DNA of 64,000 nucleotides, taken from Klebsiella phage KP13-26. The position numbers and the translations under genes are program-made. The notes below the pieces were generated by a model, which was not told the origin of the DNA, made no database searches, and saw only the letters and a list, made by a program, of their open reading frames with translations. The DNA lies in the sequence record OP617743.1; one strand, 5' to 3'. This document shows, one piece after another, positions 48,095 to 64,000 of the stretch. Each line of letters starts with the position of its first letter. Position 1 is the stretch's first letter.

Positions 48095-49057
48095 TTATAA
48101 ACTTTCAACCACTTGGCGACGTAATTCATTGGCATCTTCTAATGCATAATGTAAACGGACATGCTCTGCTAGAGCCTCACCTTTATCTTTTCTATAGTTT
48201 GGATTTTTTAGTAATTTGTCAACCTCTTGTTTCCATTCAAAAGTATTTTCAGCGTAAATTACTACTTTTTCATCTATAGAATTATAATAAGGCAGCACTT
48301 TAGAGCAAACAATAGGAAGACCTTTAGCGCCAGCTTCCAAGACTTTCAGATTACTTTTGCAAGCATTGAACTCATTACTTACCAGAGGAGCAATTGCTAC
48401 TTGATGACCATTATACACATTCATATACGTATTTAAATCTTTAACGGCTTTTACGTAATTACTTGCTGGAAATTTAGTCATTACTTTAGCCCATTCAGAG
48501 TGTACTAAACATTCAATTGACCCTGGCTTTGCGGTTGGATAAATATCATACCCGGCAATAGTGAATAGCCCTGCTGGAAAAGAATTTACAACTAAACTCA
48601 AATCCCGTTCATGACTAGCACCTCCCGCCCAAACGATAGGTGTGCTTGATGTAGTGTCTTGACTTAAAGTGAATTGTAGTTGATCAAAAGGTAATGCATT
48701 TTTAATCACCACAATATTTCTATTCAAATGACGAAGTTTGTATGCTAAATATTCTGTTGTAACAGTAACAACATCTGCCAACTTAACCATCTCTTCGATT
48801 ACTTTAGCATGTTCTGTAAAATGCTTGGCTAAATAGTGTTCTTTATTTAACTCATAATAGTCATCCAAATCCACAATTATCTTATAGCCCTTTAACTTAG
48901 CTATTTTTACTTCCTCGGCACCAAGAGAAAAAACTCTATTAAAAACCAGTACATTTTCTTTTGGTTTAAAATTACTATTAGCATAGGGCAGAACTATTCT
49001 ATGGTAATCGCAACCACTACCAAATTTGTTATCAAAATACAACTGTGGTTCTTGCAC
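48095..49057 (-). CDS. glycosyltransferase, GT-B fold (family 1-like)
   Basis: C-terminal motif KSNLKVLEAGAKGLPIV, the EX7E-type donor-binding motif. Confidence 0.55.
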   Translation of the reverse strand: MQEPQLYFDNKFGSGCDYHRIVLPYANSNFKPKENVLVFNRVFSLGAEEVKIAKLKGYKIIVDLDDYYELNKEHYLAKHFTEHAKVIEEMVKLADVVTVTTEYLAYKLRHLNRNIVVIKNALPFDQLQFTLSQDTTSSTPIVWAGGASHERDLSLVVNSFPAGLFTIAGYDIYPTAKPGSIECLVHSEWAKVMTKFPASNYVKAVKDLNTYMNVYNGHQVAIAPLVSNEFNACKSNLKVLEAGAKGLPIVCSKVLPYYNSIDEKVVIYAENTFEWKQEVDKLLKNPNYRKDKGEALAEHVRLHYALEDANELRRQVVESL

Positions 49058-49067
49058 AAAGTCCTCC

Positions 49068-49637
49068 TTAATATTTGATTACTTTTTCCATATCTTGGCA
49101 ATGTATTAGATGTGAAATTGACATTTGAGGATTTTGTGATCCTAAGCGATAGGTATGAAAAAGATACATCCCTCGCATGATACCTAAACGTTTCCCCTCT
49201 GAATGTAATTTATTTGAGAATATTAGATCGAACTGAATAGACCTTTCTTCGAAAGGTATTTCTTGCCAGAGTGATTTTCTGAATAAAAGGAAGAAACCTG
49301 CTAGCGGTACACCATAAGGAACTTCTTCTATATCACCACCAAATACCAAACGAGCTACTCTGGCCTTTTGGATATGATTCTCTATGTTTGGGTCTTCGCT
49401 ACGCTCTCCATCGAATAATTGGTATGTTGATCCTAGCCTATTACATGATGCCCCAATTACATCATACTGCGGGTTAGAACGAACTAATGTTTCAATCCAC
49501 ATTGGTTGTTCAGGTAGTAGGAACATCGTATCGATATCCCTTAAACAAATCCAACTATCTTCTGGTAACACCCGTATAGTATCATTGATACCTTTACCAA
49601 TGTCACCAGTGAGATAGGGAGTGATGTGATAAATCAT
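49068..49637 (-). CDS. putative glycosyltransferase (GT-A-like, DxD)
   Basis: LRDIDTMF contains a DxD. Adjacent to the GT-B gene. 189 aa. Confidence 0.3.
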   Translation of the reverse strand: MIYHITPYLTGDIGKGINDTIRVLPEDSWICLRDIDTMFLLPEQPMWIETLVRSNPQYDVIGASCNRLGSTYQLFDGERSEDPNIENHIQKARVARLVFGGDIEEVPYGVPLAGFFLLFRKSLWQEIPFEERSIQFDLIFSNKLHSEGKRLGIMRGMYLFHTYRLGSQNPQMSISHLIHCQDMEKVIKY

Positions 49638-49700
49638 TCTCCCTCTCCTGTATTGTTAATGTAGCACCAATCAGAGCGAATGTCCAATCGATATTGCCTA

Positions 49701-49898
49701 TCAATCTTTAGGTTTAATGATCCCACGACTCTGTAGTTCTAACTGAATTGCAATACTACGATCACGTGCTGCCATATATTCTGTGAATGTATCTCGGAGA
49801 TGATCTCCAGCTACATCACGTAACTTTAGCAACTTCTCATCTGTTACCGCAGTAAGGTCAACAAAGTGCTCTACATCATACGTCCCATTTGTTTTCAT
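49701..49898 (-). CDS. hypothetical protein
   Basis: Small ORF. Confidence 0.25.
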   Translation of the reverse strand: MKTNGTYDVEHFVDLTAVTDEKLLKLRDVAGDHLRDTFTEYMAARDRSIAIQLELQSRGIIKPKD

Positions 49899-50100
49899 CT
49901 ACAATCCCCTTAATCTCTACTGAACATTCTTTACAAATACATTGCCCTTTACTTTTATTTAACTCAATAAAAGGCTCATTATCTTCCCTTCTAGAATCAT
50001 ATAATACAGAATTGAAACAGATAATGCAAATGTGTTTAGTTAGAACATATTTTTGAACTTTTTCTTTCTTTTTGAAATTTACTTCAATAATATCGCCCAT
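49876..50100 (-). CDS. hypothetical Cys-rich small protein
   Basis: CIICF...CICKEC zinc-ribbon-like. Confidence 0.25.
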   Translation of the reverse strand: MGDIIEVNFKKKEKVQKYVLTKHICIICFNSVLYDSRREDNEPFIELNKSKGQCICKECSVEIKGIVDENKWDV

Positions 50101-50381
50101 TAATGTAATGCTCCTAAAATATTATCCTGAGCTACAACACAAGAGAATTCCACCAAGTCATGAGTTATACTGAATCTTTCCCAAACCTCAGTTTTAACTT
50201 GTAAGGTAAGACAAGGATAAATACTATCACTCATTACAACAATTGAAAAACAATCCGCAGATTCCTCATCTGTGATGAACAACGTTGCAAATCTTTCCAA
50301 ATGTTTTCTTACATTATGTAAATCCTCTTCTGTTAGACCAATCATCAGATAACTGGCAACAACAATTGCATCATCTTCCAT
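50100..50381 (-). CDS. hypothetical protein
   Basis: 93-aa ORF. Confidence 0.3.
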   Translation of the reverse strand: MEDDAIVVASYLMIGLTEEDLHNVRKHLERFATLFITDEESADCFSIVVMSDSIYPCLTLQVKTEVWERFSITHDLVEFSCVVAQDNILGALH

Positions 50382-50389
50382 ATAACCTC

Positions 50390-50905
50390 CTACCGGTAAA
50401 ATTGATGTTCTTTATATCTATACACTAAAGTCATATCTTTTTCCCAATGAACACGAATACTTTTTTTCTTAAAATATTTTGCTCCTTTGGTAAAATCTGT
50501 AGCATCTCTGGCTTCAGGAAAATTACGATTTAAGTAAAGTAAACGGTCTGCAATATGTTTTGCTTCTTGCCATTTATCTTTTTCTACTACATTGAAAGCC
50601 CCTTTGTTGGTATAAGAAAACTGTCCGGGCTGGAACAGAACATCTTTTACAGTTTTAGGGAATTGTGGGTCATTAACGCGATTCAAGACCACATTGCCAA
50701 CCGCCGCCATTCCTTTTTTACCTTGGCCTCGGCTTTCGGCATACATCGCACAAGCTAAAAGATTTTCTTTCGTATCTCGCTTTGTACATTTGTGAACTAC
50801 TTTAGCGGTCTTTACGTTTGCAGCTTCGGCAATGCCGATTACAGGTGTAAATGTAAAAGCAGTTAATGATAGTAACGCAATTGTTACAAAGTTTCGTATT
50901 AGCAA
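50390..50905 (-). CDS. secreted cell-wall hydrolase (SleB / Hydrolase_2 family), a candidate endolysin
   Basis: Signal peptide with an AEA cleavage motif. NVVLNRVNDPQFPKTVKDVLFQPGQFSY is the SleB family signature. Confidence 0.6.
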   Translation of the reverse strand: MLIRNFVTIALLSLTAFTFTPVIGIAEAANVKTAKVVHKCTKRDTKENLLACAMYAESRGQGKKGMAAVGNVVLNRVNDPQFPKTVKDVLFQPGQFSYTNKGAFNVVEKDKWQEAKHIADRLLYLNRNFPEARDATDFTKGAKYFKKKSIRVHWEKDMTLVYRYKEHQFYR

Positions 50906-50968
50906 ATTTGCCTCCTTTTTATTTTACGAACTATTATTCTAACATAAGAAGGACTTTTTTGCAAGAAA

Positions 50969-50985
50969 AGGGGCTTTCGCCCCCT
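50969..50985 (-). promoter_or_regulatory. intercistronic hairpin ggggc-GAAA-gcccc, copy 3
   Basis: Located between the stop at 50992 and the start at 50905. Confidence 0.45.
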
Positions 50986-50991
50986 CTGATA

Positions 50992-51618
50992 CTACAGCGT
51001 GAAAGTAGTAGTGAAATCCACTTTAGTTCCGTCTTCGTTCACGGTGAGTTTGAGATTATCACTCTGAATACTTTCCAAACTTTCCAGTTTAACAGTCACG
51101 CGCTCGTAAGCTGGTTGACTATCTTTCAGGAAGGTACGTTCCGTGGTCACTACACGACTTGCCACATCGAGCGTAGCTTTACCATCGTGCTCAAGATGAT
51201 AAGTGCTACCATCTTTATAATTAATAACAACGACGCCACCACTGATCACCAGATTCTCGCTGAGTGTAACGTTAGCTGACACAAGCAGAGAAACATTTTG
51301 GGCTTCTTTTTGAGCTGAAACAACAATCTCCTCAAACTCTTTTACTGTCAGCGCTTCATCATCACCCCAACTACCGTCGCTGAGGAAGGTATTACCATTA
51401 AGAATACCAAAATATCCCCAATTATTGGTAATGTAAACATCGTTTGCTGCGTCGGCCATCCAAGTATCGTGAAATGCTTCGTCAATACAGTAGTTGATGT
51501 TAAGATCCCGCGCTACTTTAAATAAATCAGTGACTTTTCGGCTATTATCCTCGTTAAAATCTACATTAACTGCAAAATTGCTGTTGAACAAATCTTTTAG
51601 TTTAGAAATTGCGCTCAT
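50992..51618 (-). CDS. hypothetical protein in the ter-like cluster
   Basis: 208-aa ORF with RBS aaaaggagaataaaATG. Confidence 0.35.
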   Translation of the reverse strand: MSAISKLKDLFNSNFAVNVDFNEDNSRKVTDLFKVARDLNINYCIDEAFHDTWMADAANDVYITNNWGYFGILNGNTFLSDGSWGDDEALTVKEFEEIVVSAQKEAQNVSLLVSANVTLSENLVISGGVVVINYKDGSTYHLEHDGKATLDVASRVVTTERTFLKDSQPAYERVTVKLESLESIQSDNLKLTVNEDGTKVDFTTTFTL

Positions 51619-51630
51619 TTTATTCTCCTT

Positions 51631-51663
51631 TTATTTATTAAAAATGGAGGGTTTTCACCCTCC
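51631..51663 (-). terminator. terminator-like hairpin after terD (ggagggtg-aaaa-ccctcc plus a U-rich tail on the minus strand)
   Basis: The minus strand reads ggagggtgaaaaccctccatttttaataaat. Confidence 0.4.
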
Positions 51664-51676
51664 AGTATGGTAATGA

Positions 51677-52279
51677 TTACGGGCATTCGTACCAAGTTTT
51701 ATCACCGCCGAATGCTACCACCACATCACAGATATCCATACCTGCTTTACCAACACCGTAGGCTTTCAGTTTCCACTCGCTGTCTTCACGAACGAGTGAA
51801 GCTACGTGGCAGATGGTGTTACCAGCAACTTCCGGTGCGAGGAAGTCAAAGTCCAGGATCTCAACGTTACGTTCTGCGTCGAAGATTTTCAGCATACCTT
51901 CGGAAGCATGACCGAGGCGCTTCTGACCAGTTTCATCGTCGATGGTGATGACGAATGCGATTTCATCTGCGTTCTGGGAGATTTTATCCAGAGTCACATC
52001 GATCTGCTCCAGGTTGCCAGTACCATCACGAACATCTTCGCCAGCGAAGGTTGAACGCTCTGGGTCAACTTTGTTGCCGTAGCAAACCAAGTGACGGGCA
52101 GACAACATTTCTGGATTACCGGAGGCGTTATGACGGCAGATTACCGCGCTAACATCCAGATCGAGCTTTGAGCTTGATTTCCATGAGAATTCCAGACGAA
52201 TCTCTTTCAGCAGGGGTGCGATCTTTTTCAGGGAAATCTTTTCGGTGGAACCTTTTTTCAGGGAAATTTTCTCAGACAT
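51677..52279 (-). CDS. terD: TerD-family protein
   Basis: MSEKISLKKGSTEKISLKK double motif. GWK/DLDVSAV segment. YGNKVDP...DVRDGTG...EQIDVTL matches TerD/TerZ/TerE. Start moved to ATG 52279, which has the RBS gaaggagaatat. Confidence 0.75.
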   Translation of the reverse strand: MSEKISLKKGSTEKISLKKIAPLLKEIRLEFSWKSSSKLDLDVSAVICRHNASGNPEMLSARHLVCYGNKVDPERSTFAGEDVRDGTGNLEQIDVTLDKISQNADEIAFVITIDDETGQKRLGHASEGMLKIFDAERNVEILDFDFLAPEVAGNTICHVASLVREDSEWKLKAYGVGKAGMDICDVVVAFGGDKTWYECP

Positions 52280-52378
52280 GTATATTCTCCTTCTTTCTGT
52301 TTTCATTATCGGGGAGAGCCACTCTCCCCTTCATGTAATCTATTCTACGTATTTCTTCTGGTAAGTCAACAACTATTT

Positions 52379-53173
52379 TTAGTTTTTTGCACCTACTTTC
52401 TCAACCCACTGACCAAATTCGTCAGACAGAAGTTTATCATACAGTTCTTCATCTGAGAGGTTAAGATCATCAACACCAATAAAATCTACGTTATCGTAAT
52501 CACGAGCGAGTTCTTTCAGGAAGCTAAAGCTTTCCTGACCTACACCCACCATAAACCAATAGATAGGTTTACCACGGTTACGAGAAAGCAGGCTACGCAC
52601 GGCTTCTTTATCGGAGTTGTCGCCATCTGTCTGAAAGAACACCATAGCGGGGGTTGTATCGACTGGCACAGAAGTATCTGGTACTTGTTCAGTGATAGTT
52701 TTCTTCACAGTTACAGTTTCGGTTTTGCCTGTCAGCTTAGCAAAGAAACCACTCACAGGACGTTTTTCTTGTACTTCGATTTCACGAGTAACAGTTTTCA
52801 TTGGAACATTACCAAAGTACTCATCGTAAATCTCTTGCATTACCGGAGCATAGGCTGTACCCCCGGAGATTGAAATACCACGCATACACTTGCCTACATA
52901 ATCATCATAGACAGACGCTGTTGCAGGAGGCAGCTCACGACAGCCGTGGTCAAACGCCCACATATCAATCTGAGCATTATCGTCAAATTGCATACCGAAC
53001 GGTAAGAGTTTACCTACAAAATCACTTACAGTACCATTACGATACAGGCTACCCATACTACCTGAGATATCCAGCGCAGATGCTACACGCAGGGTGATCT
53101 GTGCAATCTTTTTCTTTTTGAGGCTGATCACCAGTTTCTCTTGGCGTTTAACCAGACTAATTTTTTCGCTCAT
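52379..53173 (-). CDS. vWA-domain protein with a TerD-like N-terminal motif (TerY-like)
   Basis: Begins MSEKISLVK...VISLKKKK, then the MIDAS motif DISGSMGS with downstream GGTAY and TDGDNSD. Confidence 0.7.
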   Translation of the reverse strand: MSEKISLVKRQEKLVISLKKKKIAQITLRVASALDISGSMGSLYRNGTVSDFVGKLLPFGMQFDDNAQIDMWAFDHGCRELPPATASVYDDYVGKCMRGISISGGTAYAPVMQEIYDEYFGNVPMKTVTREIEVQEKRPVSGFFAKLTGKTETVTVKKTITEQVPDTSVPVDTTPAMVFFQTDGDNSDKEAVRSLLSRNRGKPIYWFMVGVGQESFSFLKELARDYDNVDFIGVDDLNLSDEELYDKLLSDEFGQWVEKVGAKN

Positions 53174-53323
53174 TCTTTATCTCCTTTTTCAACTTCTTTT
53201 AAGTCATCTGCACGGCGTGAATCGCGCCATGCAAACCATGTGTGAAACTTAAGTTCTTCTTTTTCTTCCTTTGTAAAGTAAGGTTTACTTTCATAAAAGC
53301 GTTCAAACCAAGTCAAAAATTCT

Positions 53324-53581
53324 TCACTCATTATTGCCCTCCATTAAGTTTTTAAGTGCAATAGTTGTTTCACACTCATCACCATATTCATTGTGATGTT
53401 CAAGATATGCCTCCGCAGAGGCCCAATCGTTATCTTGTGTATTCCAACCATCTATGAAAGCGTCTTCGATGATAGTCTTTAACTCAAGGCGTGTCAAGAC
53501 AATTTTATCATTCATCGGTGATATCCCACTCACAGTTGTCATCGAAACCACCAGGTGGGATAAAGTCGTCACCAACTTCAA
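53324..53581 (-). CDS. hypothetical protein
   Basis: Small acidic ORF. Confidence 0.25.
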   Translation of the reverse strand: MKLVTTLSHLVVSMTTVSGISPMNDKIVLTRLELKTIIEDAFIDGWNTQDNDWASAEAYLEHHNEYGDECETTIALKNLMEGNNE

Positions 53582-53729
53582 TCACTGTTGTACCTTCACT
53601 ACCACCGAACTCTTCGCAATAATCATCACTATACGCCAGTGCCTCGGCTAAGTCAAGGTCTTTAAACCAACGAAGACAAGAACTCCCATCTCCACAATCT
53701 TGAATAAGAATAGCTACTTTCATTAGCAC
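53508..53729 (-). CDS. hypothetical Cys-containing protein
   Basis: Small ORF overlapping its neighbours. Confidence 0.2.
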   Translation of the reverse strand: MLMKVAILIQDCGDGSSCLRWFKDLDLAEALAYSDDYCEEFGGSEGTTVIEVGDDFIPPGGFDDNCEWDITDE

Positions 53730-53923
53730 ACCTCCTCTAGGAGGATTTCTAGACCTGCTAACTGCTTTTCAGTGATAGGGTCATAAGAATATAAATGTCT
53801 CAAATCTGTGACCATTGAGATAAAACCCCTACCTAACCAAGATACTCCCATAGGCGCTACACGTAGTTCCTCATCATATCTCACTAAAATTGCATCTTTG
53901 TCTTTGTATACACGAATAAGCAT
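53723..53923 (-). CDS. hypothetical protein
   Basis: 66-aa ORF. Confidence 0.25.
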   Translation of the reverse strand: MLIRVYKDKDAILVRYDEELRVAPMGVSWLGRGFISMVTDLRHLYSYDPITEKQLAGLEILLEEVC

Positions 53924-53932
53924 GATTCCTCC

Positions 53933-55030
53933 TTAAACTAAACCAGCTTTGACTTTCTGTACCATCCCATCCTCCAGGGATTGTACTTCGTTGATGTAGT
54001 CAATACGGGCAGCACGCGCTTCAGTATTGATTCGGTTTGTTTCTTCCAGCATACGTACCAAGTTTTCCTGATCTTTACGCAGGGTTTCAATATCTAGGAT
54101 CTGACGGTTAGACAGAGCTGTAGCATTGATAATGTTTTGTGCAGCCAAATCACTTCCCATTTGAATTGCAGTATTGAATTCATCCAATACATTAGCTTGA
54201 GTTTGACCAGCTTCTGCCTGACGCAAACTCTCAATATACATTGAGAAGTTGGCAGAGTACGCTGGAATAACATTGTTCACGATGTTACGTGCAGAGCGCA
54301 TAAGCATTTCGCTTACTTTAATCATACTATTAACACGTGGCCCCATCTGGACACAAAGAAGACGCAGAGCTTTTAAATCAGCAATACGGATCTCTAAAAT
54401 GTCTAAAGTATCACGCACAGCTTGGCGTTCTTCGACCTGATCCTCTGGTAGCATATTGAAACGTGCTTCTTCTTTCTCATAGGTATCTGTCAAAAGTTCT
54501 ACATCCCGATTTAAACTTAATGCATATTGTCCAATAGCCATTTTAAGTTTTTCGAGATAAACAAGAGAATCTTCTTCTTTTCTAACATCACCTTCAAGTT
54601 CTTTGACAAGAACATCAATACGATTATTAATAGTATCGTACTCTGCAAACAGGTCTTCTTTCATACCCATCAATTTTTTGATGAATTTGCCAACACCTTT
54701 CGATTGTTTAATCGAGCTGGGGTCTAATTGTTTTGCTTGTTTAATAAGAGCGGTGAGACGTTCATTCATTTCTCCGCCCTGATTACCACGTTGATGTTTC
54801 AACACTTCATTGTTTAAACTACGTAGAGTTAATCCGGCCTCTGCACCCACATTATCAATTTCTTTACGAGTCATTGCCGGAAGTTCTGGAACAGGTTTTA
54901 CTACAGCAGGCGCATACACAGGGCTAGAATCAAAGACAGTTGGGGCTAATGCCGACCGTGTATCTTCTTTTGCAGCCAATGCACTCTTGCTTGGAGTTGT
55001 TTTAACAGCAGTTAAAAATGGACTAGACAT
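53933..55030 (-). CDS. TelA-like (toxic-anion-resistance family) helical protein, tentative
   Basis: 365-aa all-helical coiled-coil protein with RBS aaggaggcaacATG, located between the TerD/vWA and TerC genes. Confidence 0.4.
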   Translation of the reverse strand: MSSPFLTAVKTTPSKSALAAKEDTRSALAPTVFDSSPVYAPAVVKPVPELPAMTRKEIDNVGAEAGLTLRSLNNEVLKHQRGNQGGEMNERLTALIKQAKQLDPSSIKQSKGVGKFIKKLMGMKEDLFAEYDTINNRIDVLVKELEGDVRKEEDSLVYLEKLKMAIGQYALSLNRDVELLTDTYEKEEARFNMLPEDQVEERQAVRDTLDILEIRIADLKALRLLCVQMGPRVNSMIKVSEMLMRSARNIVNNVIPAYSANFSMYIESLRQAEAGQTQANVLDEFNTAIQMGSDLAAQNIINATALSNRQILDIETLRKDQENLVRMLEETNRINTEARAARIDYINEVQSLEDGMVQKVKAGLV

Positions 55031-55039
55031 GTTGCCTCC

Positions 55040-55618
55040 TTATTTTCTGTCTTCATAGTATGGAGAAATCCCCATAGCTTCACACTTCTTAAGCCATTCT
55101 TCCCAAGACAATAACCAAATTTTATCAATGGTTCCTTCCTTATCTTTACTAAGGTAGGTTCCCCACATTATACTATTAGGTTTTTGCCTAGAAGGACGGC
55201 GATTATACCCTCTGATAAATCTTAATTCGTTATCTGATATGAGAGCCATTACCCAAGGGTATTCTGTTTTAACAGAACGCTTTGATACAGCTTTAGGAAT
55301 AGCCCCTATTTCCTGCGCTATTGCTTTCCATGCAGCACCATGATCAGACCTACCTCTTTTACAAAAATCTATTGCATGGGCTATCTCATGTAGCATAGTA
55401 TCAACAATGTTATGCTCTTCCGAGTTTTTATGCAGATGCCAATTGATAATAACTAACTTACTTCTATTATCTGCCCAACCAAAGGATTTATTTCTTTTTT
55501 CTCTAACGCCTGCTCGCCATCCGTTGGCCTTTAGCAGGGCATCGTATTCAGGAAAGTCTTCTTTAAATTTACATAATGTAGTTTTCCATAAATTTAGAAT
55601 ATCCCTTGTACTATACAT
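55040..55618 (-). CDS. SprT-like zinc metalloprotease
   Basis: LVIINWHL...TMLHEIAHAIDF...HGAAWK, the SprT/HExxH-type motif. Confidence 0.6.
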   Translation of the reverse strand: MYSTRDILNLWKTTLCKFKEDFPEYDALLKANGWRAGVREKRNKSFGWADNRSKLVIINWHLHKNSEEHNIVDTMLHEIAHAIDFCKRGRSDHGAAWKAIAQEIGAIPKAVSKRSVKTEYPWVMALISDNELRFIRGYNRRPSRQKPNSIMWGTYLSKDKEGTIDKIWLLSWEEWLKKCEAMGISPYYEDRK

Positions 55619-55620
55619 TT

Positions 55621-56163
55621 TTATACCCTAACAGTCAATTCGGATAAAATGATCTCCATGCCCTCTTGTTGCCAGACCAAATAACCGTTATTAGTTAAAG
55701 ACATATCCAATAAAAATTGGTGATTAATCCCACGAACTTTAACTTCCACAACATCCTCATTGTACACAGTGATTGCATTACGGCTATTTACTGTATCCTT
55801 CCAAGTGTCTTCCATGATAAACACAGTTTTTTCAGGAGTGGCTTCAAGGGACACAAAGCCTTTTACAGTGTATGTTTCACCGCTCATGAACAGGATGGTT
55901 GCCTTGTTCACGCTTGGTGCTCTACGCGATGGGCCTTTCTTACGTTTAGAATGTTCTGGACGAAATGCTTTGATTGTAATTTCTCCGCTATCAATCATGT
56001 CTTGCGTGGCCCATTGAACAACACTAGTCTTCACGCCTCTAAACACCCAATCCCCATGATCGTCCGTATGATAGAATGTGAAAAGATTATTGTTATTCAT
56101 TAAGGCAGATTCAGCAAAGCCCTCTCCGCTTAGATGATAGATATTACCTTCAATAAAGTTCAT
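55621..56163 (-). CDS. hypothetical protein
   Basis: The track ORF runs to 56379. ATG 56163 has the strong RBS caaggagaaaatATG. Confidence 0.35.
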   Translation of the reverse strand: MNFIEGNIYHLSGEGFAESALMNNNNLFTFYHTDDHGDWVFRGVKTSVVQWATQDMIDSGEITIKAFRPEHSKRKKGPSRRAPSVNKATILFMSGETYTVKGFVSLEATPEKTVFIMEDTWKDTVNSRNAITVYNEDVVEVKVRGINHQFLLDMSLTNNGYLVWQQEGMEIILSELTVRV

Positions 56164-56233
56164 ATTTTCTCCTTGATTTATTTGTTTCTCTTGACAAGGG
56201 ACACTATGAAGCATCCCTAAGCAAAAGTCAACC

Positions 56234-56473
56234 TTACTGCGGAATGATTTCTTTAATTGCTGGCTCACGTCCTGCCAACTTACCGTTGAAGTCAATACAG
56301 AAGCTGTATTCAACACCGCTGGCATGTTCGAAAAGGAGTCTGTCATTCGGATCGTAGACGTAGATACCCTCTTCGTCAACTAGGACAATCTCCAGTTGAT
56401 CTTTATCTCCGTGTGCTGAAAAGTCTGTATCTACCATTACCGCGATATCACCTTTCTTTGCATTATTAAACAT
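56234..56473 (-). CDS. hypothetical protein
   Basis: 79-aa ORF with RBS aggaggaaacATG. Confidence 0.3.
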   Translation of the reverse strand: MFNNAKKGDIAVMVDTDFSAHGDKDQLEIVLVDEEGIYVYDPNDRLLFEHASGVEYSFCIDFNGKLAGREPAIKEIIPQ

Positions 56474-56485
56474 GTTTCCTCCTTA

Positions 56486-57049
56486 TTAGCGACGACGACT
56501 AGAGCTATAACTTTTACGGCTAGAAGAACTACTGTAGCTACGAGAAGAACTTAGTGGGCTAGAGTAGGATTTTTTAGTAGTATAACTACTGTTAGTATTC
56601 ATAGTAGGACGTGAATACGTTTGGGTGCTTGTTGAACGTGGTTGGCTTTGATACCCCTGTTTATTTGTTGAATAAGAGCTACGGCTATTTGAGGAGTAGC
56701 TACTGCGTGGTTGAGTCACAGTGTTGTTATTGATAATCGTGGTACGGCTAGAGTTATTGTTATAACCACCGCCATTGTTACCACCACCAGACATCATGTG
56801 ACCTAAAATCATACCTGTTGCAAAGTCTCCAACACCAGAATCATGACTGCCACTCTGCACGATAACAGGCGCAGGAGCAGACTGAATCACTTGTGGAGGT
56901 TGTTGGTTAACATACTGCTCATCCACTTGTTGTTGCTGCGGAGCAGGGATGTATTGGGTTTGCGCTGGAACATCGTCATCACATGCGCTCAGCATTGTAA
57001 CACCCAGGCCGATAATGATTGCACCGATCACCAGTTTAGTTTTGTTCAT
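56486..57049 (-). CDS. lipoprotein with a Q/P-rich and S/Y/N-rich disordered body
   Basis: Lipobox LSAC after a signal sequence, then low-complexity segments. Confidence 0.5.
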   Translation of the reverse strand: MNKTKLVIGAIIIGLGVTMLSACDDDVPAQTQYIPAPQQQQVDEQYVNQQPPQVIQSAPAPVIVQSGSHDSGVGDFATGMILGHMMSGGGNNGGGYNNNSSRTTIINNNTVTQPRSSYSSNSRSSYSTNKQGYQSQPRSTSTQTYSRPTMNTNSSYTTKKSYSSPLSSSRSYSSSSSRKSYSSSRRR

Positions 57050-57242
57050 GTTTTGTTTCCTCGCTTAAAGTGTTAATACATTGATTGTTATCTAACGAGT
57101 AGCAAAAAACTGGCTTCTCGTCTTTACTGATGCTAATACTACCACCGCTTACTACCGCTGTCAATGCTACAACTAAAATAAATAAACCTACACCGAAACA
57201 AATACTTTCGAACACAAACCACACTGCTTTCAGGATTTTCAC
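57036..57242 (-). CDS. small membrane protein
   Basis: Two hydrophobic helices. Confidence 0.3.
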   Translation of the reverse strand: MKILKAVWFVFESICFGVGLFILVVALTAVVSGGSISISKDEKPVFCYSLDNNQCINTLSEETKHEQN

Positions 57243-57459
57243 TGCTGTACTCCTTCGTTAATGCACTGACTATAGCGCAGATATAGATTATCATTACCTG
57301 CCTCAAAATTACGAATTTGCTGCGTACATTCTTGGTAAGTGAGGTGTGGGACAGTTAAATGTTCCGTACCTCCATTTGAGTTGGTTGCAATGCTCCAAAT
57401 CAGAATCAAAGTATACATGTTTCTCTCCTGTAGAAAGCCTCCCGAAGGAGGCTATTTCA

Positions 57460-58440
57460 TTAAGCTGTTGCTTCTTCTTTCTCAGGGAAGACCAGACTTG
57501 CCAGTACACCCAGCGCCAGAGTACCTAGTACGATATACAGACTTACGTTAGCTGAGATATCGTGCGGCATGAACGCCCACTTAGCATGTAACGCTTCACC
57601 AAACGGGTGATACATCAGTTTCGCACCTACAAATACCAGAACTACAGCTACTGCTTTCTCCAAGTGAACAAGATACTTAACCGCAACACTCAGCACGAAG
57701 AACAGAGCACGTAAACCCAGGATTGCGAAAAGCATCGCAGAATAGACCAGCAGAGGTTCTTGTGTCACACCGATCACCGCAGGTACAGAGTCGAAGGAGA
57801 AAATCACATCAGTGAATTCTACTACGAACACACACAGCAGCGCTGGAGTTGCATATTTGATACCATTTTTAATCGTGATGAACTTCTCACCATCTAGAGC
57901 CGGATGAACAGGAAGAATCTTACCAACCAGACGAGTCGCCCAGTGTTTAGAGTAATCAACTTCATCTTCCTCATCATCACCGCCTTTGATAATAGCTAGT
58001 GCAGACCACGCTACAATCAGACCGAATAACACCTGGAAAAACCAGTGTAAATTAAAGATTGCCGTACCTGCTGCTACAAAGATACCACGGAAGACGATGG
58101 CACCTGCGATACCCCAAAGCAGAATCTTATGCTGCAAGTGTGTCGATTTAATACCGAAGCTTGCGAAGATTGCCATAAATACCATCAGGTTATCCACCGA
58201 CAACGACTTCTCTAACACATACCCACTCAAGAATAGGGATGCAAATTCTTTGCCGTACTCAACCCAGATAAATGCATAGTAACCAAATGCTAGGGCAATC
58301 CAGAACACTGACCAGAGCAGCGCACTCTTAATACCGATTTCTTTATTTTCTTTATGTCCAAAGAAATCAACTACGATGGACAGTACCAGCACACCTACGA
58401 GCACAGCAATGTCCAACAGTGGGAATCCAAAATGGTGCAT
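57460..58440 (-). CDS. terC: TerC-family integral membrane protein
   Basis: Multi-pass membrane protein with the TerC signature EKSLSVDNLMVFMAIF. RBS aaaaaaggagataaacATG. Confidence 0.75.
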   Translation of the reverse strand: MHHFGFPLLDIAVLVGVLVLSIVVDFFGHKENKEIGIKSALLWSVFWIALAFGYYAFIWVEYGKEFASLFLSGYVLEKSLSVDNLMVFMAIFASFGIKSTHLQHKILLWGIAGAIVFRGIFVAAGTAIFNLHWFFQVLFGLIVAWSALAIIKGGDDEEDEVDYSKHWATRLVGKILPVHPALDGEKFITIKNGIKYATPALLCVFVVEFTDVIFSFDSVPAVIGVTQEPLLVYSAMLFAILGLRALFFVLSVAVKYLVHLEKAVAVVLVFVGAKLMYHPFGEALHAKWAFMPHDISANVSLYIVLGTLALGVLASLVFPEKEEATA

Positions 58441-58521
58441 GTTTATCTCCTTTTTTGAAGAGGGAGCCTATCTCCCTCTTGACATATATGTTACGCTAAT
58501 TTAATTTCTTGTCAACTACTT

Positions 58522-58788
58522 TTATTCCACAATTTTGAAGTTTACACCGATAGTACCTGCAACATCACACGCACAATCGCAGTCTGTATCATCAAGGAAT
58601 AGTACCGCTTGGTCTTCATCGTTCGTCTGACCTGGATAACCAGCAAAGCGCTCAGGTACTACTTCACCTGGCTCCAGGATAATAGCGTCATATTCTTTGT
58701 TCACTGTGGTGTCAATAAATGACCAGTGATCTTTGTTCAGAACAACAATCTTAACATTTTTCATAATTTCTCCTTTGTTAGTGAGCAA
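58522..58788 (-). CDS. hypothetical protein (CDCACD cysteine cluster)
   Basis: 88-aa ORF. Confidence 0.3.
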   Translation of the reverse strand: MLTNKGEIMKNVKIVVLNKDHWSFIDTTVNKEYDAIILEPGEVVPERFAGYPGQTNDEDQAVLFLDDTDCDCACDVAGTIGVNFKIVE

Positions 58789-58888
58789 CTCATTTCGTCT
58801 TGATGTAATGAAGTTTACGCTCTTCTTAGATTAAGTCAACAATTATTTTCAAAATAATTAAGCCTCCCGTAGGAGGCTCATGTTCCAA

Positions 58889-59101
58889 TCATTTTCTTGC
58901 AAATATGCCGCGCAACGTTGCCAGTATGAGTGTGACACACACCACACTCCAAAACGTTACAGGGACTTCCCAACTAACATGCCCCATCAGCGAGACAATA
59001 TAGTTATAGGCCAACATCACCAGCCACGTTGGTATCAGGCAGATTAAGAACGCTACCACCACCATAGCTAAGAACATTACAACTCCAGCAATAATTTCCA
59101 T
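58889..59101 (-). CDS. small membrane protein
   Basis: Two TM helices. Confidence 0.3.
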   Translation of the reverse strand: MEIIAGVVMFLAMVVVAFLICLIPTWLVMLAYNYIVSLMGHVSWEVPVTFWSVVCVTLILATLRGIFARK

Positions 59102-59109
59102 AATTTCTC

Positions 59110-59571
59110 CTAATTTAATTTAAAAATAGTAACTTCTAGACCTTTGGCGACGAGTGTCTCCTGAATCATAGCTTCAACTACAGACCACTTTCCGCCAGCT
59201 AATCCACAACCAATGAGAGGGAGTCCTACTGTCTTCCCGCCACATGCAATTACATCATCACCCATTGCGTCCAATGCATCAAAGATAGCGTCATAGTCTA
59301 AGTCACGAATACCTGAATCACGTTTACTGTAGCCGTACTGTCCGTACAGATTGTAGACGGTGAATTCACCATCCTCTACAATAGCTTTCGTGAAGGTTCC
59401 CAGTTTCGTGCGATCACCTTTACGTGTTGCACAATCAGCAGCATACACTTCGGGCCATTCTTTTTTAATTTTTGGAGCTATACCACTGCCCATAGTGCAA
59501 AAACAATTACAGCAGTGGGCAATAGCATCCACTTCAGCTTGAAGCAGATCTCCGATTTTATACTTTAGCAT
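59110..59571 (-). CDS. macro-domain protein (ADP-ribose-binding or -processing)
   Basis: GDLLQAEVDAIAHCCNCFCTMGSGIAPKI and IGCGLAGG match the macro-domain Gly-rich motifs. Confidence 0.65.
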   Translation of the reverse strand: MLKYKIGDLLQAEVDAIAHCCNCFCTMGSGIAPKIKKEWPEVYAADCATRKGDRTKLGTFTKAIVEDGEFTVYNLYGQYGYSKRDSGIRDLDYDAIFDALDAMGDDVIACGGKTVGLPLIGCGLAGGKWSVVEAMIQETLVAKGLEVTIFKLN

Positions 59572-60121
59572 GTTTATCCATCCATTTCTCAGCTTTCAGT
59601 TTCAGCAGGTCGTTCAATTGCCCAATAACTTCGTCTGCCAGTTCTTGCCCATCCAGGTCACTTGTTTTCTTCTTGTGAACGAGAGCCAAATCCAAAGCAC
59701 AAATAATAACGTCGGCACATTCCCCTAAGAGGTCTTCCTTTTGCCGATCTGGATTCACAAGCCAATCTGCACACTCCCCTGTTTCAGCAGTAAGATATGC
59801 CATAACATCCATCACACCACGAGTCTTATTCACGTGTCGGCTTGCATAGACAGCCGTGGAAACATCTAATGTCATTTCAGGATAGTCTGAGTGTTTAGCC
59901 TCATCTTCTACCCAAAACATATCACGAGTACCCCCAACAATCGTAAAAGTAGGGTACGATAAGCCACAATCAATTTCTTCGGCTCTTACTCTAACTTTAC
60001 CATTCCCTGTAGCTTCTACTAGTTCCAGTACACGGATGTGATAACCCGCCCCAAAAGCAGCATCTTTGCTCTTAGCAATCCGCCCGATATCTTTTTGGGA
60101 AACACTTGTGATCTTTTCCAT
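59558..60121 (-). CDS. protein with a C-terminal MazG-like NTP-pyrophosphohydrolase domain
   Basis: TAETGECADWLV ... EDLLGECADVIICALDLA, an EExGE/D-type helical motif. Overlaps the macro gene by 14 nt. Confidence 0.4.
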   Translation of the reverse strand: MEKITSVSQKDIGRIAKSKDAAFGAGYHIRVLELVEATGNGKVRVRAEEIDCGLSYPTFTIVGGTRDMFWVEDEAKHSDYPEMTLDVSTAVYASRHVNKTRGVMDVMAYLTAETGECADWLVNPDRQKEDLLGECADVIICALDLALVHKKKTSDLDGQELADEVIGQLNDLLKLKAEKWMDKHAKV

Positions 60122-60130
60122 TAATACTCC

Positions 60131-60988
60131 TTACTTATTCAAAATATTACCTTCGAAGAAATGATGAAGAAACGCAAAGTTCTCTTCATATTTCTCAATT
60201 TTATTGTACCCTTCTGACAGACAACCGAAATATAACGCTTCAACGTAAGATAGTGGGAGTTGGCTCAGTGCTACCTTAAAGGTCACTTCTGGCTGGCTCA
60301 TTAGGTATTTGATTGGACGAACCAAACATTGGGCATCAGGCTCATCTTTAATCATCTGCACGAAAGCGGAAATAGTGTTAATGTCACTGAAATTCAGTGC
60401 CGCTTCTGTGTTGGCCTCAGTACCATTATACTTCGCGAAGTATAGGAAGAATGTGTCATTAGTTACATTCTCTGCATCTAAGATCTCAATGAGCTTGTCT
60501 TCGTGTGTTCCGGTAATATTTACATCATCAATGAAGATCAGGTTTTTGTTTCCCCAGAAATCTTTGTTGATCGAGAAAGTATCACCGTCAATCAGAGCTT
60601 TGCGGTCTTCCTTACTGAGGAAGCCATAATCATTGATATAACTCACCTTACGATGAATGATATCCCACTCTACAGCTTTGCCATGCGTACTGTTCACAGC
60701 TACCAAATGGTTAATATGGTCTACAAAATGCTCTGAGAGCAACGTAGCGGCGTTTTTAACGTAGTTATAGGGCGAAGGTATCACCACAAACTGACTATGT
60801 ACCAAACGGCTCCAGTGGGCCTCAAAGAAGCTTTCTGCAAGAATGCGCCCCATACGCTTAGCTGCTTGATTGCTACCAAACTTCAGCCGGGAATAATCCG
60901 CTGTATTGAAACCAGCATTTTCTAAGGTAGAAAAAGTATGGGCAAAGTGTTGAGTTTGATTACGCATTAATGATTTCTCCTTTTTCAA
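60131..60988 (-). CDS. phosphoribosyltransferase (PRTase type I fold)
   Basis: PRPP-binding motif NLIFIDDVNITGTHEDK. Confidence 0.55.
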   Translation of the reverse strand: MKKEKSLMRNQTQHFAHTFSTLENAGFNTADYSRLKFGSNQAAKRMGRILAESFFEAHWSRLVHSQFVVIPSPYNYVKNAATLLSEHFVDHINHLVAVNSTHGKAVEWDIIHRKVSYINDYGFLSKEDRKALIDGDTFSINKDFWGNKNLIFIDDVNITGTHEDKLIEILDAENVTNDTFFLYFAKYNGTEANTEAALNFSDINTISAFVQMIKDEPDAQCLVRPIKYLMSQPEVTFKVALSQLPLSYVEALYFGCLSEGYNKIEKYEENFAFLHHFFEGNILNK

Positions 60989-61616
60989 GTTTCTCTAGTA
61001 GGTCTTGTGGGTTTTTAACATGACAAAACTTAAACCCTAAATCAACACACTTCCCATCATAAATTTCACTGTCTCCAATATGCAAAATTTCATAGTTTGC
61101 TAGGCAAGATAGCTTACTAGAAAGCAGAGTTTTAGCAAAGAATAAAATGTCAGGTTTACAAAGCAGATGTTCGTCCGAGAAATGCATAAAACTCCACCAA
61201 GGCATTCTATCAAAGCCTACAGCCTGAGACAAGATTCTACCTGAGATAAAGTTAGTGTTGCTTTTGATACTCAGCTCATAATTATCATCAAGATTTATTA
61301 ATTGATCAACTAAATCCCCATTTAAGTGCGGAGGATTAGAAATAAAAGCCTGTTCACACATATATTGCATCTCAGCAATTGCTTTTAGTTCCATATTTAA
61401 ATTTTTACCTAAGACATGCCAAGCAGTAGAGGTAGAACCACAAATACCGTTCTCTGCTTCTTGATCTAAATATTTTTTAACTTTAAGGTACATCATATCA
61501 GCTTCTTTTGGTGAAACCCCTGCAAAGTAGGAGATAGCTTCTGTACGTTCATAAGCATAATACTTGTTTGCAGTGATCAGAGTGTTCCATACATCAAAAG
61601 AAATATGTTTAATCAT
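60960..61616 (-). CDS. HAD-superfamily hydrolase/phosphatase
   Basis: N-terminal motif I ISFDVWNTLI (DxD/WxT) at residues 5-14. Confidence 0.5.
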   Translation of the reverse strand: MIKHISFDVWNTLITANKYYAYERTEAISYFAGVSPKEADMMYLKVKKYLDQEAENGICGSTSTAWHVLGKNLNMELKAIAEMQYMCEQAFISNPPHLNGDLVDQLINLDDNYELSIKSNTNFISGRILSQAVGFDRMPWWSFMHFSDEHLLCKPDILFFAKTLLSSKLSCLANYEILHIGDSEIYDGKCVDLGFKFCHVKNPQDLLEKLEKGEIINA

Positions 61617-61885
61617 AGGTCTACCTCACACATCTCAAGTGCTTCAATGGCAATATCCCGTTTCAGAGAAGGCGCTATTACATAATACAATGAATCATTC
61701 ATATCGCCACTAAGGATTCTAGATAAGTCTTCTTTAGAGGCAAAATATGGCTGTTCACCTTCCTGACCTAAAGAAAGATGAACCCACTCCCCCTCTTCAT
61801 CAGCGTTAAAGTCTGCTACTACAATCATTCCAGACAAAGTATGTTTCAGATAAAAGAATTTCATATTAAGCCCACCATGCGTCAA
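61613..61885 (-). CDS. hypothetical protein
   Basis: Small acidic ORF. Confidence 0.25.
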   Translation of the reverse strand: MTHGGLNMKFFYLKHTLSGMIVVADFNADEEGEWVHLSLGQEGEQPYFASKEDLSRILSGDMNDSLYYVIAPSLKRDIAIEALEMCEVDL

Positions 61886-62471
61886 GGTTTAAGTTACTAT
61901 CCAGTATCACTTGTTCTACGTGATAGCTTTTCATTTCAATTCCACTTTCCAGAAGCATACCATACGCCTCATTAAAACGCAACTTATCTTCTGCGGAATA
62001 TAGACGCGCATTATAGAAGCGATAATCCACATCTTCAGCATTGGAAGAGACACGGAAGAAGCCAGTGTCAATCTCCGGCGCACTTGCAGGAGTCTTGATA
62101 TGAACTTCACCATAATGTTCTTTGCTCAAATCCATGAACATTACACACGCAATGTGTCGGAACATCTGTTCCAGTTTATAGCGTACAACTTTGAATCCAG
62201 CGGCTTGCAGTTTTGCTACACAATCCAACATAAGGCCTGTTTCGATACCTGCCTGGTACTTAGTTAGCATACGGTCACGCTGTGATTGTGTGTCACGGTG
62301 CAGATCAATTATAGTGCATTTTGCACCAATCAGTTTTGCTGCTTCCGTGAGTTGCTTACTACTTACGTCTGCTAATGTAAGATGAAAATGTGCTTTCCAT
62401 ACTTTATCCACAGGAACACCAAGAGGTTCTTCGTTTGTTCGTGGTAGGTTTGCGATCAGCCTATGTTGCAT
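61866..62471 (-). CDS. hypothetical protein in the PRTase/HAD module
   Basis: 201-aa ORF with no motif I can name. Confidence 0.3.
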   Translation of the reverse strand: MQHRLIANLPRTNEEPLGVPVDKVWKAHFHLTLADVSSKQLTEAAKLIGAKCTIIDLHRDTQSQRDRMLTKYQAGIETGLMLDCVAKLQAAGFKVVRYKLEQMFRHIACVMFMDLSKEHYGEVHIKTPASAPEIDTGFFRVSSNAEDVDYRFYNARLYSAEDKLRFNEAYGMLLESGIEMKSYHVEQVILDSNLNLDAWWA

Positions 62472-62481
62472 TGTTTTCTCC

Positions 62482-62691
62482 TTAAAAAGGTGAGCGTTCT
62501 AATTCGTCTGGTTCAATACCAACAATATTAGCGATATCTCTATCAGAAAGCAACTCCTTTCTTTGCAGAATTTCTACCAGTGTACCAAGCATTTCACGAG
62601 TGTCCCGCTCACTGCTCTCTACCAAACCTTTTGCACTATCAATCTGGTCTTTATAAAAATAAAATTGAATCATAAATCCTCCAAACAACAA
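62482..62691 (-). CDS. hypothetical protein
   Basis: 69-aa ORF with RBS ggaggatttatgATTC. Confidence 0.3.
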   Translation of the reverse strand: MLFGGFMIQFYFYKDQIDSAKGLVESSERDTREMLGTLVEILQRKELLSDRDIANIVGIEPDELERSPF

Positions 62692-62708
62692 AGGGGCTTT
62701 CGCCCCCT
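62692..62708 (-). promoter_or_regulatory. intercistronic hairpin ggggc-GAAA-gcccc, copy 4
   Basis: Immediately after the AAA+ gene stop and before the next RBS. Confidence 0.45.
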
Positions 62709-62724
62709 TGTCAATTACTTCACC

Positions 62725-63885
62725 TTAGTAGCTACGACCCTGAAAAGCGTAGTCAGTGTAGCTTTTCTGCTCTTTTGTTTTGATAACCAGTTCGATGACA
62801 TTCTCACCTTCTTTGAACATGAAGTGGAAGCCATCTACGCCCATGCTCTTAATATTTTGCTCGTTGTAAGAGATGGTGAACAGGTCAGAATCCCAGTGCC
62901 AATCTTCCGCCTCGTCATCGTAGATATCGAGAGTAATGTTTTCCATTTCCGGCAGACGCGCCTTACCTTTGTGGTGTTTAACACGGAAGTCAAACGTGCG
63001 GCCAGCGAACAGACGCTGCGGAGCCAGCTCGTAAAGTTCGTACTCGTCCGTAATGTCATCCTTACGCTCAACACCGTTCACCTTGAAGGTTACAATTTCC
63101 TTCGCAGAACGAGTACCGCCATCATTGATGGTAATACCCATCAGGTTCAGTGCATCGGTAAACTTATCGTCAGGGTAACGATTCAGTTCTTCAACCAGAG
63201 ACTGAACAACATCGAAATTCAGATCAGAGGACAGGTTGTACAGGGTTTCAAAGTCACCCACGAACGCTTTGTTTTCCAAGTTTTTAGCTAAGTAATCATC
63301 CAACGTGGACTTAGGCAGTTTCTTATAGCTAAAGCTATAGAAGATACGGCTTGGTCGGTTACGCAGAAATTCAGACACATAACCATCGTTCTTAGTCAGA
63401 ACGAACAGTTTGTTATAGCCACCTACACCATCCAACAGAGTAAGCAGACCGTCCTGATGCTCTTTCTCGGCGTACAGCTTATCAAATTCATCAACCATCA
63501 CCATAACTGGTTGCTTGATCTTAGACATGAAGTTGATAAAATCTTCACCGTTGAACGGGCTACCGATGGAGATGGTAGGGATACCGATCTTACGCAGCGC
63601 CACAGAGAGCATTTTTGCTTGCAGAGTTTTACCGCTGCCTTTAGTACCTTCAAGAAGGATACCAGTGTTCTTACCTTGACGGCTCAGGAACGTTTTGATA
63701 ATACGATCAGATTTATCGTCGGTATCACCGTAGGTTACGCTTGGTACTTCCATATCGTTTTTAGGGTAAAGGAACCACTCACCATGCTGAGTAACACCAA
63801 TACCATAAGTACCTGCTGGAATTACATCGATATCAATACCAGATTTCTGACGCAGGAAGATTTGACTACCAAATTGTGTGAACAT
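62725..63885 (-). CDS. AAA+ ATPase
   Basis: Walker A GILLEGTKGSGKT and Walker B VMVMVDEFDKL. Start set at ATG 63885 after the RBS gaaggagaaatac. Confidence 0.65.
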   Translation of the reverse strand: MFTQFGSQIFLRQKSGIDIDVIPAGTYGIGVTQHGEWFLYPKNDMEVPSVTYGDTDDKSDRIIKTFLSRQGKNTGILLEGTKGSGKTLQAKMLSVALRKIGIPTISIGSPFNGEDFINFMSKIKQPVMVMVDEFDKLYAEKEHQDGLLTLLDGVGGYNKLFVLTKNDGYVSEFLRNRPSRIFYSFSYKKLPKSTLDDYLAKNLENKAFVGDFETLYNLSSDLNFDVVQSLVEELNRYPDDKFTDALNLMGITINDGGTRSAKEIVTFKVNGVERKDDITDEYELYELAPQRLFAGRTFDFRVKHHKGKARLPEMENITLDIYDDEAEDWHWDSDLFTISYNEQNIKSMGVDGFHFMFKEGENVIELVIKTKEQKSYTDYAFQGRSY

Positions 63886-64000
63886 GTATTTCTCCTTCTT
63901 TCTCTTTAAAGTGTAGGAGAAGTATATCAACCTCTCCTATGAAAATCAACCCTTATTTTTTAAAAACACGACCGAGTTGTTTACCGCTGTTGATCACCGT

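Follow-up and report, generated by a model that had tools for sequence, protein, structure and literature searches.

The DNA analysed here, referred to as the window, is a stretch of 64,000 nucleotides from Klebsiella phage KP13-26 (sequence record OP617743.1), a phAPEC8/phi92-like member of the Stephanstirmvirinae. At 59110-63930 it carries eight open reading frames (ORFs), all on the minus strand, transcribed from position 63930 downwards and each with a PHROG match (E 1e-21 to 1e-143). In that order they encode an AAA ATPase, a 69-residue protein, a 201-residue protein (p201), a 90-residue protein, a HAD hydrolase, a phosphoribosyltransferase (PRTase) of the PRTase_3 family, a MazG-like protein and a macro-domain protein. 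This block of densely packed, early/middle genes opens a tellurite-resistance-like (Ter) system of the phage, about 12 kb long. The stretch from 57.4 to 64 kb has 96% identity to Klebsiella phage KP2025 and 93% to phi1_175008, and about 80 records of E. coli Phapecoctavirus and Justusliebigvirus match it at roughly 77%. We favour, as probable though far from certain, the interpretation that the HAD hydrolase and PRTase_3 form a known, biochemically unsolved Ter cassette within the block, and that the accessory genes around it are separate. An earlier note on the window had already called the macro, MazG-like, PRTase, HAD and AAA+ domains; its ORFs, coordinates, strand and domain assignments proved correct in profile searches.

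The PRTase gene (60131-60988) matches PF15610 with 139.8 bits, far above the gathering cutoff of 28.7 (E 1.4e-40), across 257 of the 264 profile positions. PF15610 is PRTase_3, also called “ComF-like”, and was defined from Ter loci. The protein has a type-I PRTase fold with an intact loop for binding phosphoribosyl pyrophosphate (PRPP), the loop being invariant in the family, and family members possess helical extensions of their own at both the N- and C-terminus. The real start is probably the ATG at 60967, which overlaps the stop codon of the HAD gene by 8 nt (ATGCGTAA) and is preceded by a GGAG Shine-Dalgarno sequence. An ordinary purine or pyrimidine salvage enzyme (Apt, Hpt, Upp or PyrE) would share the fold and the PRPP loop, and several phage GenBank records label PRTase_3 as “putative orotate phosphoribosyltransferase”. 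Against this, neither PF00156 nor any NCBIfam equivalog for salvage enzymes was matched at E <= 0.1, and the best salvage match in a profile search of PDB sequences was only Hpt, with E 0.16 over the PRPP loop. The terminal extensions and the obligate HAD partner also argue against such an enzyme. As judged by these searches, the protein belongs to PF15610 and is not a salvage enzyme (Apt, Upp, Hpt, PyrE), an explanation that we regard as extremely unlikely; the earlier note, for which an ordinary Apt, Upp or Hpt would have been a refutation, is upheld on this point.

The HAD hydrolase gene (60960-61616; TIGR02252, 1.2e-6; phrog_14393, 4e-86) has an unusual motif I, SFDVWNTL (residues 5-13), in which the nucleophile Asp is present and a Trp occupies the Asp+2 position. 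It thereby departs from the canonical DxDx(T/V) pattern with its second Asp (here D-V-W-N-T-L). The same is seen throughout the family alignment, where those members that cover motif I keep the nucleophile and have Trp, occasionally Tyr, Ile or Ala, at Asp+2. Motifs II (S/T), III (K) and IV (GDxxxD) are present, phosphatase-like and conserved across loci. The nearest solved chain is the functionally uncharacterised archaeal structural-genomics protein 2om6 from P. horikoshii, with which the motif FDVWNTL is shared. In HAD phosphatases and mutases, Asp+2 serves as the general acid/base; with this residue missing, the dephosphorylation of a nucleotide to a nucleoside is plausible, but less secure than is usually stated.

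We collected 45 PRTase_3 loci from annotated phages, metagenomic contigs, IMG/VR and GTDB genomes. A gene of the same HAD family is found immediately upstream of PRTase_3 in 44 of them, in phages, Rhizobiales, Bacteroidales and one actinobacterium. The translationally coupled HAD-PRTase_3 pair is the only part of the block that is conserved as a unit. The five-domain module envisaged in the earlier note does not hold together in this way, as the MazG, ATPase, p201 and macro genes vary between sister genera. Its assignment of the PRTase and HAD genes to a Ter-associated cassette is sustained by the PF15610 match, by the adjacency of the HAD gene and by Ter genes that lie near the pair in independent loci.

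Ter neighbours were sought within 10 kb of the pair by a local profile search of greater sensitivity. They were found in all Stephanstirmvirinae loci, in 7 of the 16 viral loci outside this subfamily, and in five of seven bacterial loci other than those of Rhizobiales. The Pedococcus chromosome shows the canonical order (TelA ... TerC/DUF475, vWA-TerF, TerD, TerD, HAD, PRTase_3, PRTase_3), and at a Dysgonomonas locus a PP2C phosphatase and a protein kinase adjoin the pair. Among 50,697 phage records, PRTase_3 occurs in 156 and TerD in 151, and these are nearly the same groups, namely Stephanstirmvirinae and jumbo phages of Caulobacter and Brevundimonas. A distance of 28 kb separates the two genes in Caulobacter phage CcrPW.

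The window itself has TerC, TelA, vWA-TerF-like and TerD genes on the same strand as the cassette and within 9 kb of it. The first encodes an integral membrane protein of the TerC/Alx family (57460-58440; PF03741, 6e-41; TIGR03718, 1.6e-95) and lies, as the earlier note had it, downstream of the block on the same strand. The note did not go beyond TerC and so missed the genes that follow, all on the minus strand: SprT-like (55040-55618; PF10263, 1e-11), TelA (53933-55030; PF05816, 7e-34), vWA-TerF-like (52379-53173; PF10138, 1e-41) and TerD (51677-52306; PF02342, 3e-28). With these five genes on one strand, the phage has a near-complete Ter system. A 208-residue ORF downstream of TerD was considered as a second TerD and rejected on examination. 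Just past the Ter genes, on the same strand, are glycosyltransferase-like and cell-wall hydrolase (Hydrolase_2) genes at 48095-49057 and 50390-50905. Near 40.7 kb (window positions of about 40000-41000) the GC skew changes sign and gene orientation flips from plus to minus, a switch that marks the border between the structural/late block and the leftward block with the Ter genes.

Several further observations concern the pair in other replicons. In Klebsiella phage KP13-16 (locus L006, 8357-9831) the HAD protein is 79% identical to that of the window, yet the adjoining PRTase_3 only 54%, a difference that points to recombination within the cassette or at its edge; there, the pair lies on the other side of the Ter genes, and there is no macro gene. 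The Rhizobiales loci (L010-L023) are on chromosomes and plasmids of Rhizobium, Sinorhizobium and Ensifer and have no Ter gene within 10 kb of the pair. At the one of them with annotated neighbours (L014, Sinorhizobium), a ClpP-like protease gene adjoins it. PRTases of Rhizobiales and of Rhizobium phages are similarly close to that of the window (40-46% identity), and the Rhizobiales pair may be phage-derived. Four records labelled “Campylobacter phage” (MG065645, MG065650, MG065656 and MG065689) have PRTase_3 and TerD proteins with 77.9% and 80.4% identity to those of the window; these values are the same as for Stephanstirmvirinae of E. coli, and the host labels look doubtful.

The macro-domain protein (59110-59571; PF01661, 7e-6; NCBIfam DarG, 7e-16; PADLOC DarG, 1e-17) has BT1257, SCO6735, TARG1 and DarG as relatives in the PDB, and belongs to a very large family (2,994 phage records, almost all without PRTase_3). 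It is 44% identical over its full length (E 3e-39) to gp176 of Vibrio phage Achelous, which is encoded between the Adps and Namat genes of that phage and is itself 98.7% identical to the Adpp region of Vibrio phage Gary. Gary Adpp dephosphorylates ADP-ribose-1''-phosphate, letting the pathway NARP1, which reconstitutes nicotinamide adenine dinucleotide (NAD), overcome aRES defence (preprint 10.64898/2026.01.28.702374). The protein is also 36% identical to Tk.4 (AdfM) of the T4-like phage PP01, and T4 Tk.4 is reported to counter DarTG2 (preprint 10.1101/2025.11.20.689424). As the same family thus includes an anti-DarTG2 protein, the specificity of the macro protein cannot be read from homology. 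It is a stand-alone macro-domain protein of the Adpp/Tk.4 (AdfM) family, and our best reading from these relationships is that it would be an ADP-ribose-processing anti-defence enzyme. Its gene adjoins PRTase_3 in three genera of Stephanstirmvirinae and does not do so in KP13-16; outside the subfamily a macro gene is near the pair at only one of 30 loci, 7 kb away.

At the other end of the window, on the plus strand, are an Adps-like gene (544-1476, with a Pfam Prs domain) and a Namat-like gene (1760-3523, with a Pfam NAPRTase domain). The latter protein matches PDB entries 9w5x/9w5w at 7e-117, against 1e-48 for a true Nampt. On the strength of these matches we identify the two as the NARP1 NAD+-reconstitution pair, which is not part of the Ter cassette and which agrees with the placement of a Prs/Nampt pair in NAD metabolism by the earlier note. 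The phage in which NARP1 was discovered, Bas63, belongs to Phapecoctavirus, in the same subfamily. The macro protein possibly serves this pathway in trans.

The MazG-like protein (59558-60121) consists of an N-terminal domain of about 90 residues without assigned function and a C-terminal, putative all-alpha MazG-like nucleoside triphosphate (NTP) pyrophosphohydrolase domain. The latter is supported by a match to phrog_1247 over residues 82-184 (2e-21), while PF03819 gave 14.2 bits against a gathering cutoff of 22 (E 0.056); the acidic metal-binding motifs EtGE and E..lgEcaD (of the ExxE ... ExxD type) are conserved in the family. Members were found only on contigs of about 150 kb, and a MazG gene stands beside the cassette only in the window's clade, with true matches at three loci (L001, L030 and L031). 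Matches of the iterated local MazG profile to macro ORFs are an artefact of overlapping stop-to-stop ORFs and were disregarded. Between the N-terminal domain (59840-60121) and the N-terminal extension of the 244-residue macro protein of Justusliebigvirus (locus L005, 9854-10150) there is 31% identity (1e-7). That one domain is attached to MazG in the window's clade and to macro in Justusliebigvirus is a hint that both enzymes act in a common context.

A MazG-like pyrophosphohydrolase next to the pair could clear canonical NTPs, and base-modification pathways are frequent in large phages, so that the pair might supply a modified nucleotide for phage DNA or RNA modification instead of a signalling or regulatory metabolite. 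We consider this very unlikely. The Pfam-scanned ORFs at 48095-63930 include no glycosylase, DNA-acting transferase or nucleotide kinase, the MazG gene is restricted to one clade, and the pair also occurs in bacterial Ter clusters and on Rhizobiales replicons.

The p201 gene (61866-62471) encodes a protein with no match in Pfam, NCBIfam or PDB sequences. Its AlphaFold2 model (mean confidence, pLDDT, 84) is alpha/beta with no convincing neighbour in the PDB, and the proteins that it matches in BFVD are uncharacterised ones from phages and giant viruses. A full HMMER scan gave 254 representative homologues, mostly from phages and giant viruses; there was no hit in plasmids. Residues R97, K99, E101, E122, H124, S142, E186 and D191 are invariant and include those of the motifs R-x-K-x-E and E-x-H, and an H-x-T motif is nearly so. 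An N-terminal NUDIX domain is present in 14 of 114 homologues; some members are fused to a helix-turn-helix domain, and one, encoded on a phage contig beside NAD kinase, Nampt and NUDIX genes, to HD_4. Members include those at 6001-7125 of loci L050/L051 and P0220, P0225 and P0257. The window's clade and Phapecoctavirus have the gene, Justusliebigvirus lacks it, and 110 Rheinheimera phage genomes carry it by itself among early genes.

Two PADLOC AbiEi models, PDLC02277 and PDLC02279, match p201 over its full length (3.8e-13) and all ten relatives tested (E 1e-9 to 1e-20). AbiEi is the antitoxin of the AbiE abortive-infection system. However, p201 does not match the Pfam AbiEi family and its predicted fold is alpha/beta and not a winged helix; neither the window nor ten other loci examined (L049-L058) has an AbiEii nucleotidyltransferase partner. 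An assignment as a 2H phosphoesterase was also tried and rejected, as p201 lacks the two H-x-T/S motifs on an internally duplicated fold. It is a new, unnamed domain, which is probably nucleotide-related or resembles an orphan antitoxin.

The macro, NARP1 and p201 genes raise the question of whether the pair belongs with them, in a counter-defence island where PRTase_3 and HAD would act on NAD breakdown products (nicotinamide or ADP-ribose derivatives) and cooperate with macro, MazG, p201 and NARP1 against defences that deplete NAD or signal through ADP-ribose. The similarity of the macro protein to Achelous gp176, and through it to the characterised Gary Adpp, speaks for this, as do NARP1 in the same genome and the p201 domains of other phages, which are fused to NUDIX or, next to NAD kinase and Nampt genes, to HD_4. 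In addition, Rhizobium phages have an NMNAT/NUDIX gene two genes away from the pair, and Nampt-like genes occur within 10 kb of it at two loci (L042 and L043). We nevertheless regard this explanation as unlikely, since the pair is associated most strongly and most often with TerD, TelA, vWA and TerC and not with NAD genes, its bacterial versions are located in Ter clusters, nothing in the sequence indicates a nicotinamide or ADP-ribose substrate, and nucleotide-metabolism accessory genes commonly cluster in large phages. The NAD/ADP-ribose theme of the earlier note therefore applies to the NARP1 pair and to the macro protein, a homologue of an ADP-ribose-1''-phosphate phosphatase, and does not extend to PRTase and HAD, which nothing ties to NAD. 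Nor does anything tie the chemistry of the pair to the anti-defence role that had been suggested for it.

The ATPase ORF (62725-63930; PF00004, 3.6e-5; phrog_2376, 3e-100) comprises 401 codons from a TTG, the real start being likely at about 63885, and the C-terminal half of the protein is uncharacterised. The family is represented in 304 phage records, many of them from phages of Gram-positive hosts (Lactobacillus, Staphylococcus and Bacillus among them) without PRTase_3, and in one or two copies in each matching Stephanstirmvirinae record. The window's clade and Justusliebigvirus both have the gene, and in Phapecoctavirus it is absent beside the cassette; it is probably not part of the cassette. 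The 69-residue ORF (62482-62691; phrog_17780, 1.9e-21) is kept upstream of the cassette in all three Stephanstirmvirinae groups, with 43-96% identity by tblastn at nine loci (L001, L002, L005, L009, L030-L033 and L037). The 90-residue ORF (61613-61885; phrog_2390, 1e-21), between p201 and HAD, was not found at L001, L002 or L005, being absent from the locus of the closest relative (phi1_175008) and from the E. coli phages; by this comparison it is a recent, small and variable insertion. Beyond the macro gene follow a hydrophobic (membrane) protein of 70 residues (58889-59101, minus strand, known from its ORF and translation), with 53-99% identity in relatives, and an 88-residue ORF (58522-58788, minus strand).

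Two terminator-like hairpins on the minus strand enclose part of this region. One, from a consensus scan, is at 62691-62709 between the ATPase gene and the 69-residue ORF (AAGGGGGCGAAAGCCCCTT, then a T-rich tail); the other, at 58859-58880, follows the 70-residue membrane protein as the last gene before it (TGAGCCTCC-TACG-GGAGGCTTA, then ATTATTTTGA). Promoter-like hexamers, also on the minus strand, precede the 88-residue ORF (58839-58812) and TerC (58515-58488). Hairpins and hexamers alike are pattern matches only; they suggest a transcription unit from 62691 to 58889 that contains neither the ATPase nor TerC, so that TerC may be transcribed separately from it. Within these limits, the genes overlap or are less than 35 nt apart.

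Such tight packing between hairpins speaks for a reading in which macro, MazG, PRTase and HAD, with or without the ATPase, form one pathway that builds or trims a single new ribosylated metabolite through PRPP-dependent ribosylation, dephosphorylation and steps by macro and MazG. The adjacency of macro and PRTase in three genera and the N-terminal domain common to the MazG-like protein and the Justusliebigvirus macro protein are further points in its favour. The distribution of the genes makes it quite unlikely, however. MazG is confined to the window's clade; one sister genus lacks the ATPase gene beside the cassette and another lacks p201; in KP13-16 no macro gene accompanies the pair, and at loci outside the subfamily the two hardly ever meet; moreover, both the macro family and, for the most part, the ATPase family occur in phages without PRTase_3.

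A related proposal, which we likewise find unlikely, is that the operon at 62691-58889 would be a PRPP/ADP-ribose counter-defence unit, in which PRTase_3 and HAD are coupled to ADP-ribose processing by the macro protein, the MazG-like protein and the NUDIX-associated p201. The domain common to the MazG-like and macro proteins would then be a targeting domain. If this were true, the “nucleoside-like metabolite” of Ter systems would be a molecule derived from NAD or ADP-ribose, and the role of the phage Ter proteins would lie in a circuit for immune evasion or superinfection exclusion and not in a metal-stress system.

We return to the interpretation that we favour, a Ter cassette with separate accessory genes. 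From the gene identities, family membership, pairing and co-occurrence given above, we infer its substrates, product, target and biological role as follows. The HAD-PRTase_3 pair is predicted to make a nucleoside- or nucleotide-like small molecule. PRTase_3 would transfer phosphoribose from PRPP to a base-like nucleophile, and the HAD partner would process the 5'-phosphate product, simple dephosphorylation not being assured without Asp+2. The product may act on the membrane-associated proteins TerD, TelA, vWA-TerF and TerC encoded downstream, and these may alter the envelope or the ion state of the infected cell, plausibly excluding rival phages or protecting the cell. The macro, MazG-like, p201 and ATPase genes would be lineage-specific neighbours with jobs of their own: the macro protein probably works for NARP1, whose genes are 56 kb distant, the MazG-like protein would be an NTP pyrophosphohydrolase, and the ATPase would be unrelated to the cassette.

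Several observations weigh against this interpretation. The pair is found without a Ter gene within 10 kb at 14 Rhizobiales and nine viral loci, and no TerD was detected in Rhizobium phages at the sensitivity of tblastn; adjacent Ter genes are therefore not a requirement for the pair to work. Close relatedness inflates the co-occurrence counts, which represent only a handful of independent lineages. ATP-grasp and C-C lyase domains are absent from the Pfam-scanned ORFs at 48095-63930, and the missing general acid in HAD weakens the step in which a phosphatase gives the nucleoside. Macro is kept beside PRTase across three genera, which, together with the N-terminal domain common to the MazG-like and macro proteins, makes a functional link between macro and the cassette possible. 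Finally, literature searches found no biochemical or experimental report on PRTase_3 or its HAD partner, and no experimental work on these genes in phAPEC8/phi92-like phages.

With the phage Ter link and NARP1 both published, the finding is a modest discovery. Ter systems with PRTase and HAD were already described in phages by comparative genomics (Iyer et al. 2021, PMC7824862, section 3.4.10), so that the earlier note was not the first to apply the idea to phages; these authors found the phage versions to consist of PRTase plus HAD only and proposed a role in competition with superinfecting phages. The genes terC, terF-vWA, terD and telA have also been noted in a Klebsiella phage paper. Our analysis adds three refinements: the HAD enzyme is without the general-acid Asp, the pair is the sole conserved unit, and the macro protein belongs to the Adpp/AdfM anti-defence family. 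The minimal phage form, HAD and PRTase_3 by TerC, TelA, vWA and TerD, is shared by BASEL-collection phages of E. coli K-12; of these, Bas63 has already been edited with Cas13a, and Bas62 too carries the cassette, as bas62_0070/0069. The question is therefore directly testable.

Three known systems invite comparison. The closest structural relative of PRTase_3 is the competence protein ComFC (PDB 7p0h), which has a PRTase domain and carries a zinc finger, with 13% identity; PRTase_3 differs in having a helical extension of its own at the C-terminus (model residues ~194-283) and an obligate HAD partner. The window resembles NARP1-AP (Adps-Adpp-Namat; Osterman et al. 2026, preprint 10.64898/2026.01.28.702374) in encoding Adps-like and Namat-like proteins and in having a macro protein homologous over its full length to the Achelous macro protein whose gene lies between Adps and Namat. 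In contrast to NARP1-AP, the macro gene of the window is about 56 kb from NARP1, beside the Ter cassette, and not in the NARP1 operon.

The third is the Ter-associated module itself, with the same PRTase family and an adjacent HAD hydrolase, linked in the window to TerC, TelA, vWA-TerF and TerD on the same strand, an arrangement also seen in the Pedococcus chromosome and in several unrelated large phages. The ter loci are linked to tellurite, colicin and phage resistance. Their PRTase and HAD biosynthetic module was reportedly described by Anantharaman, Iyer and Aravind in 2012, its product being predicted from comparative genomics, and fuller bacterial modules are said to include ATP-grasp and C-C lyase partners. 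By comparison, the version in the window is minimal, without ATP-grasp, C-C lyase, TerB or TerA/Z/E paralogues. It is further set apart by a HAD family without the Asp+2 general acid, and by its position inside a lineage-specific block together with macro, MazG-like and p201 genes.

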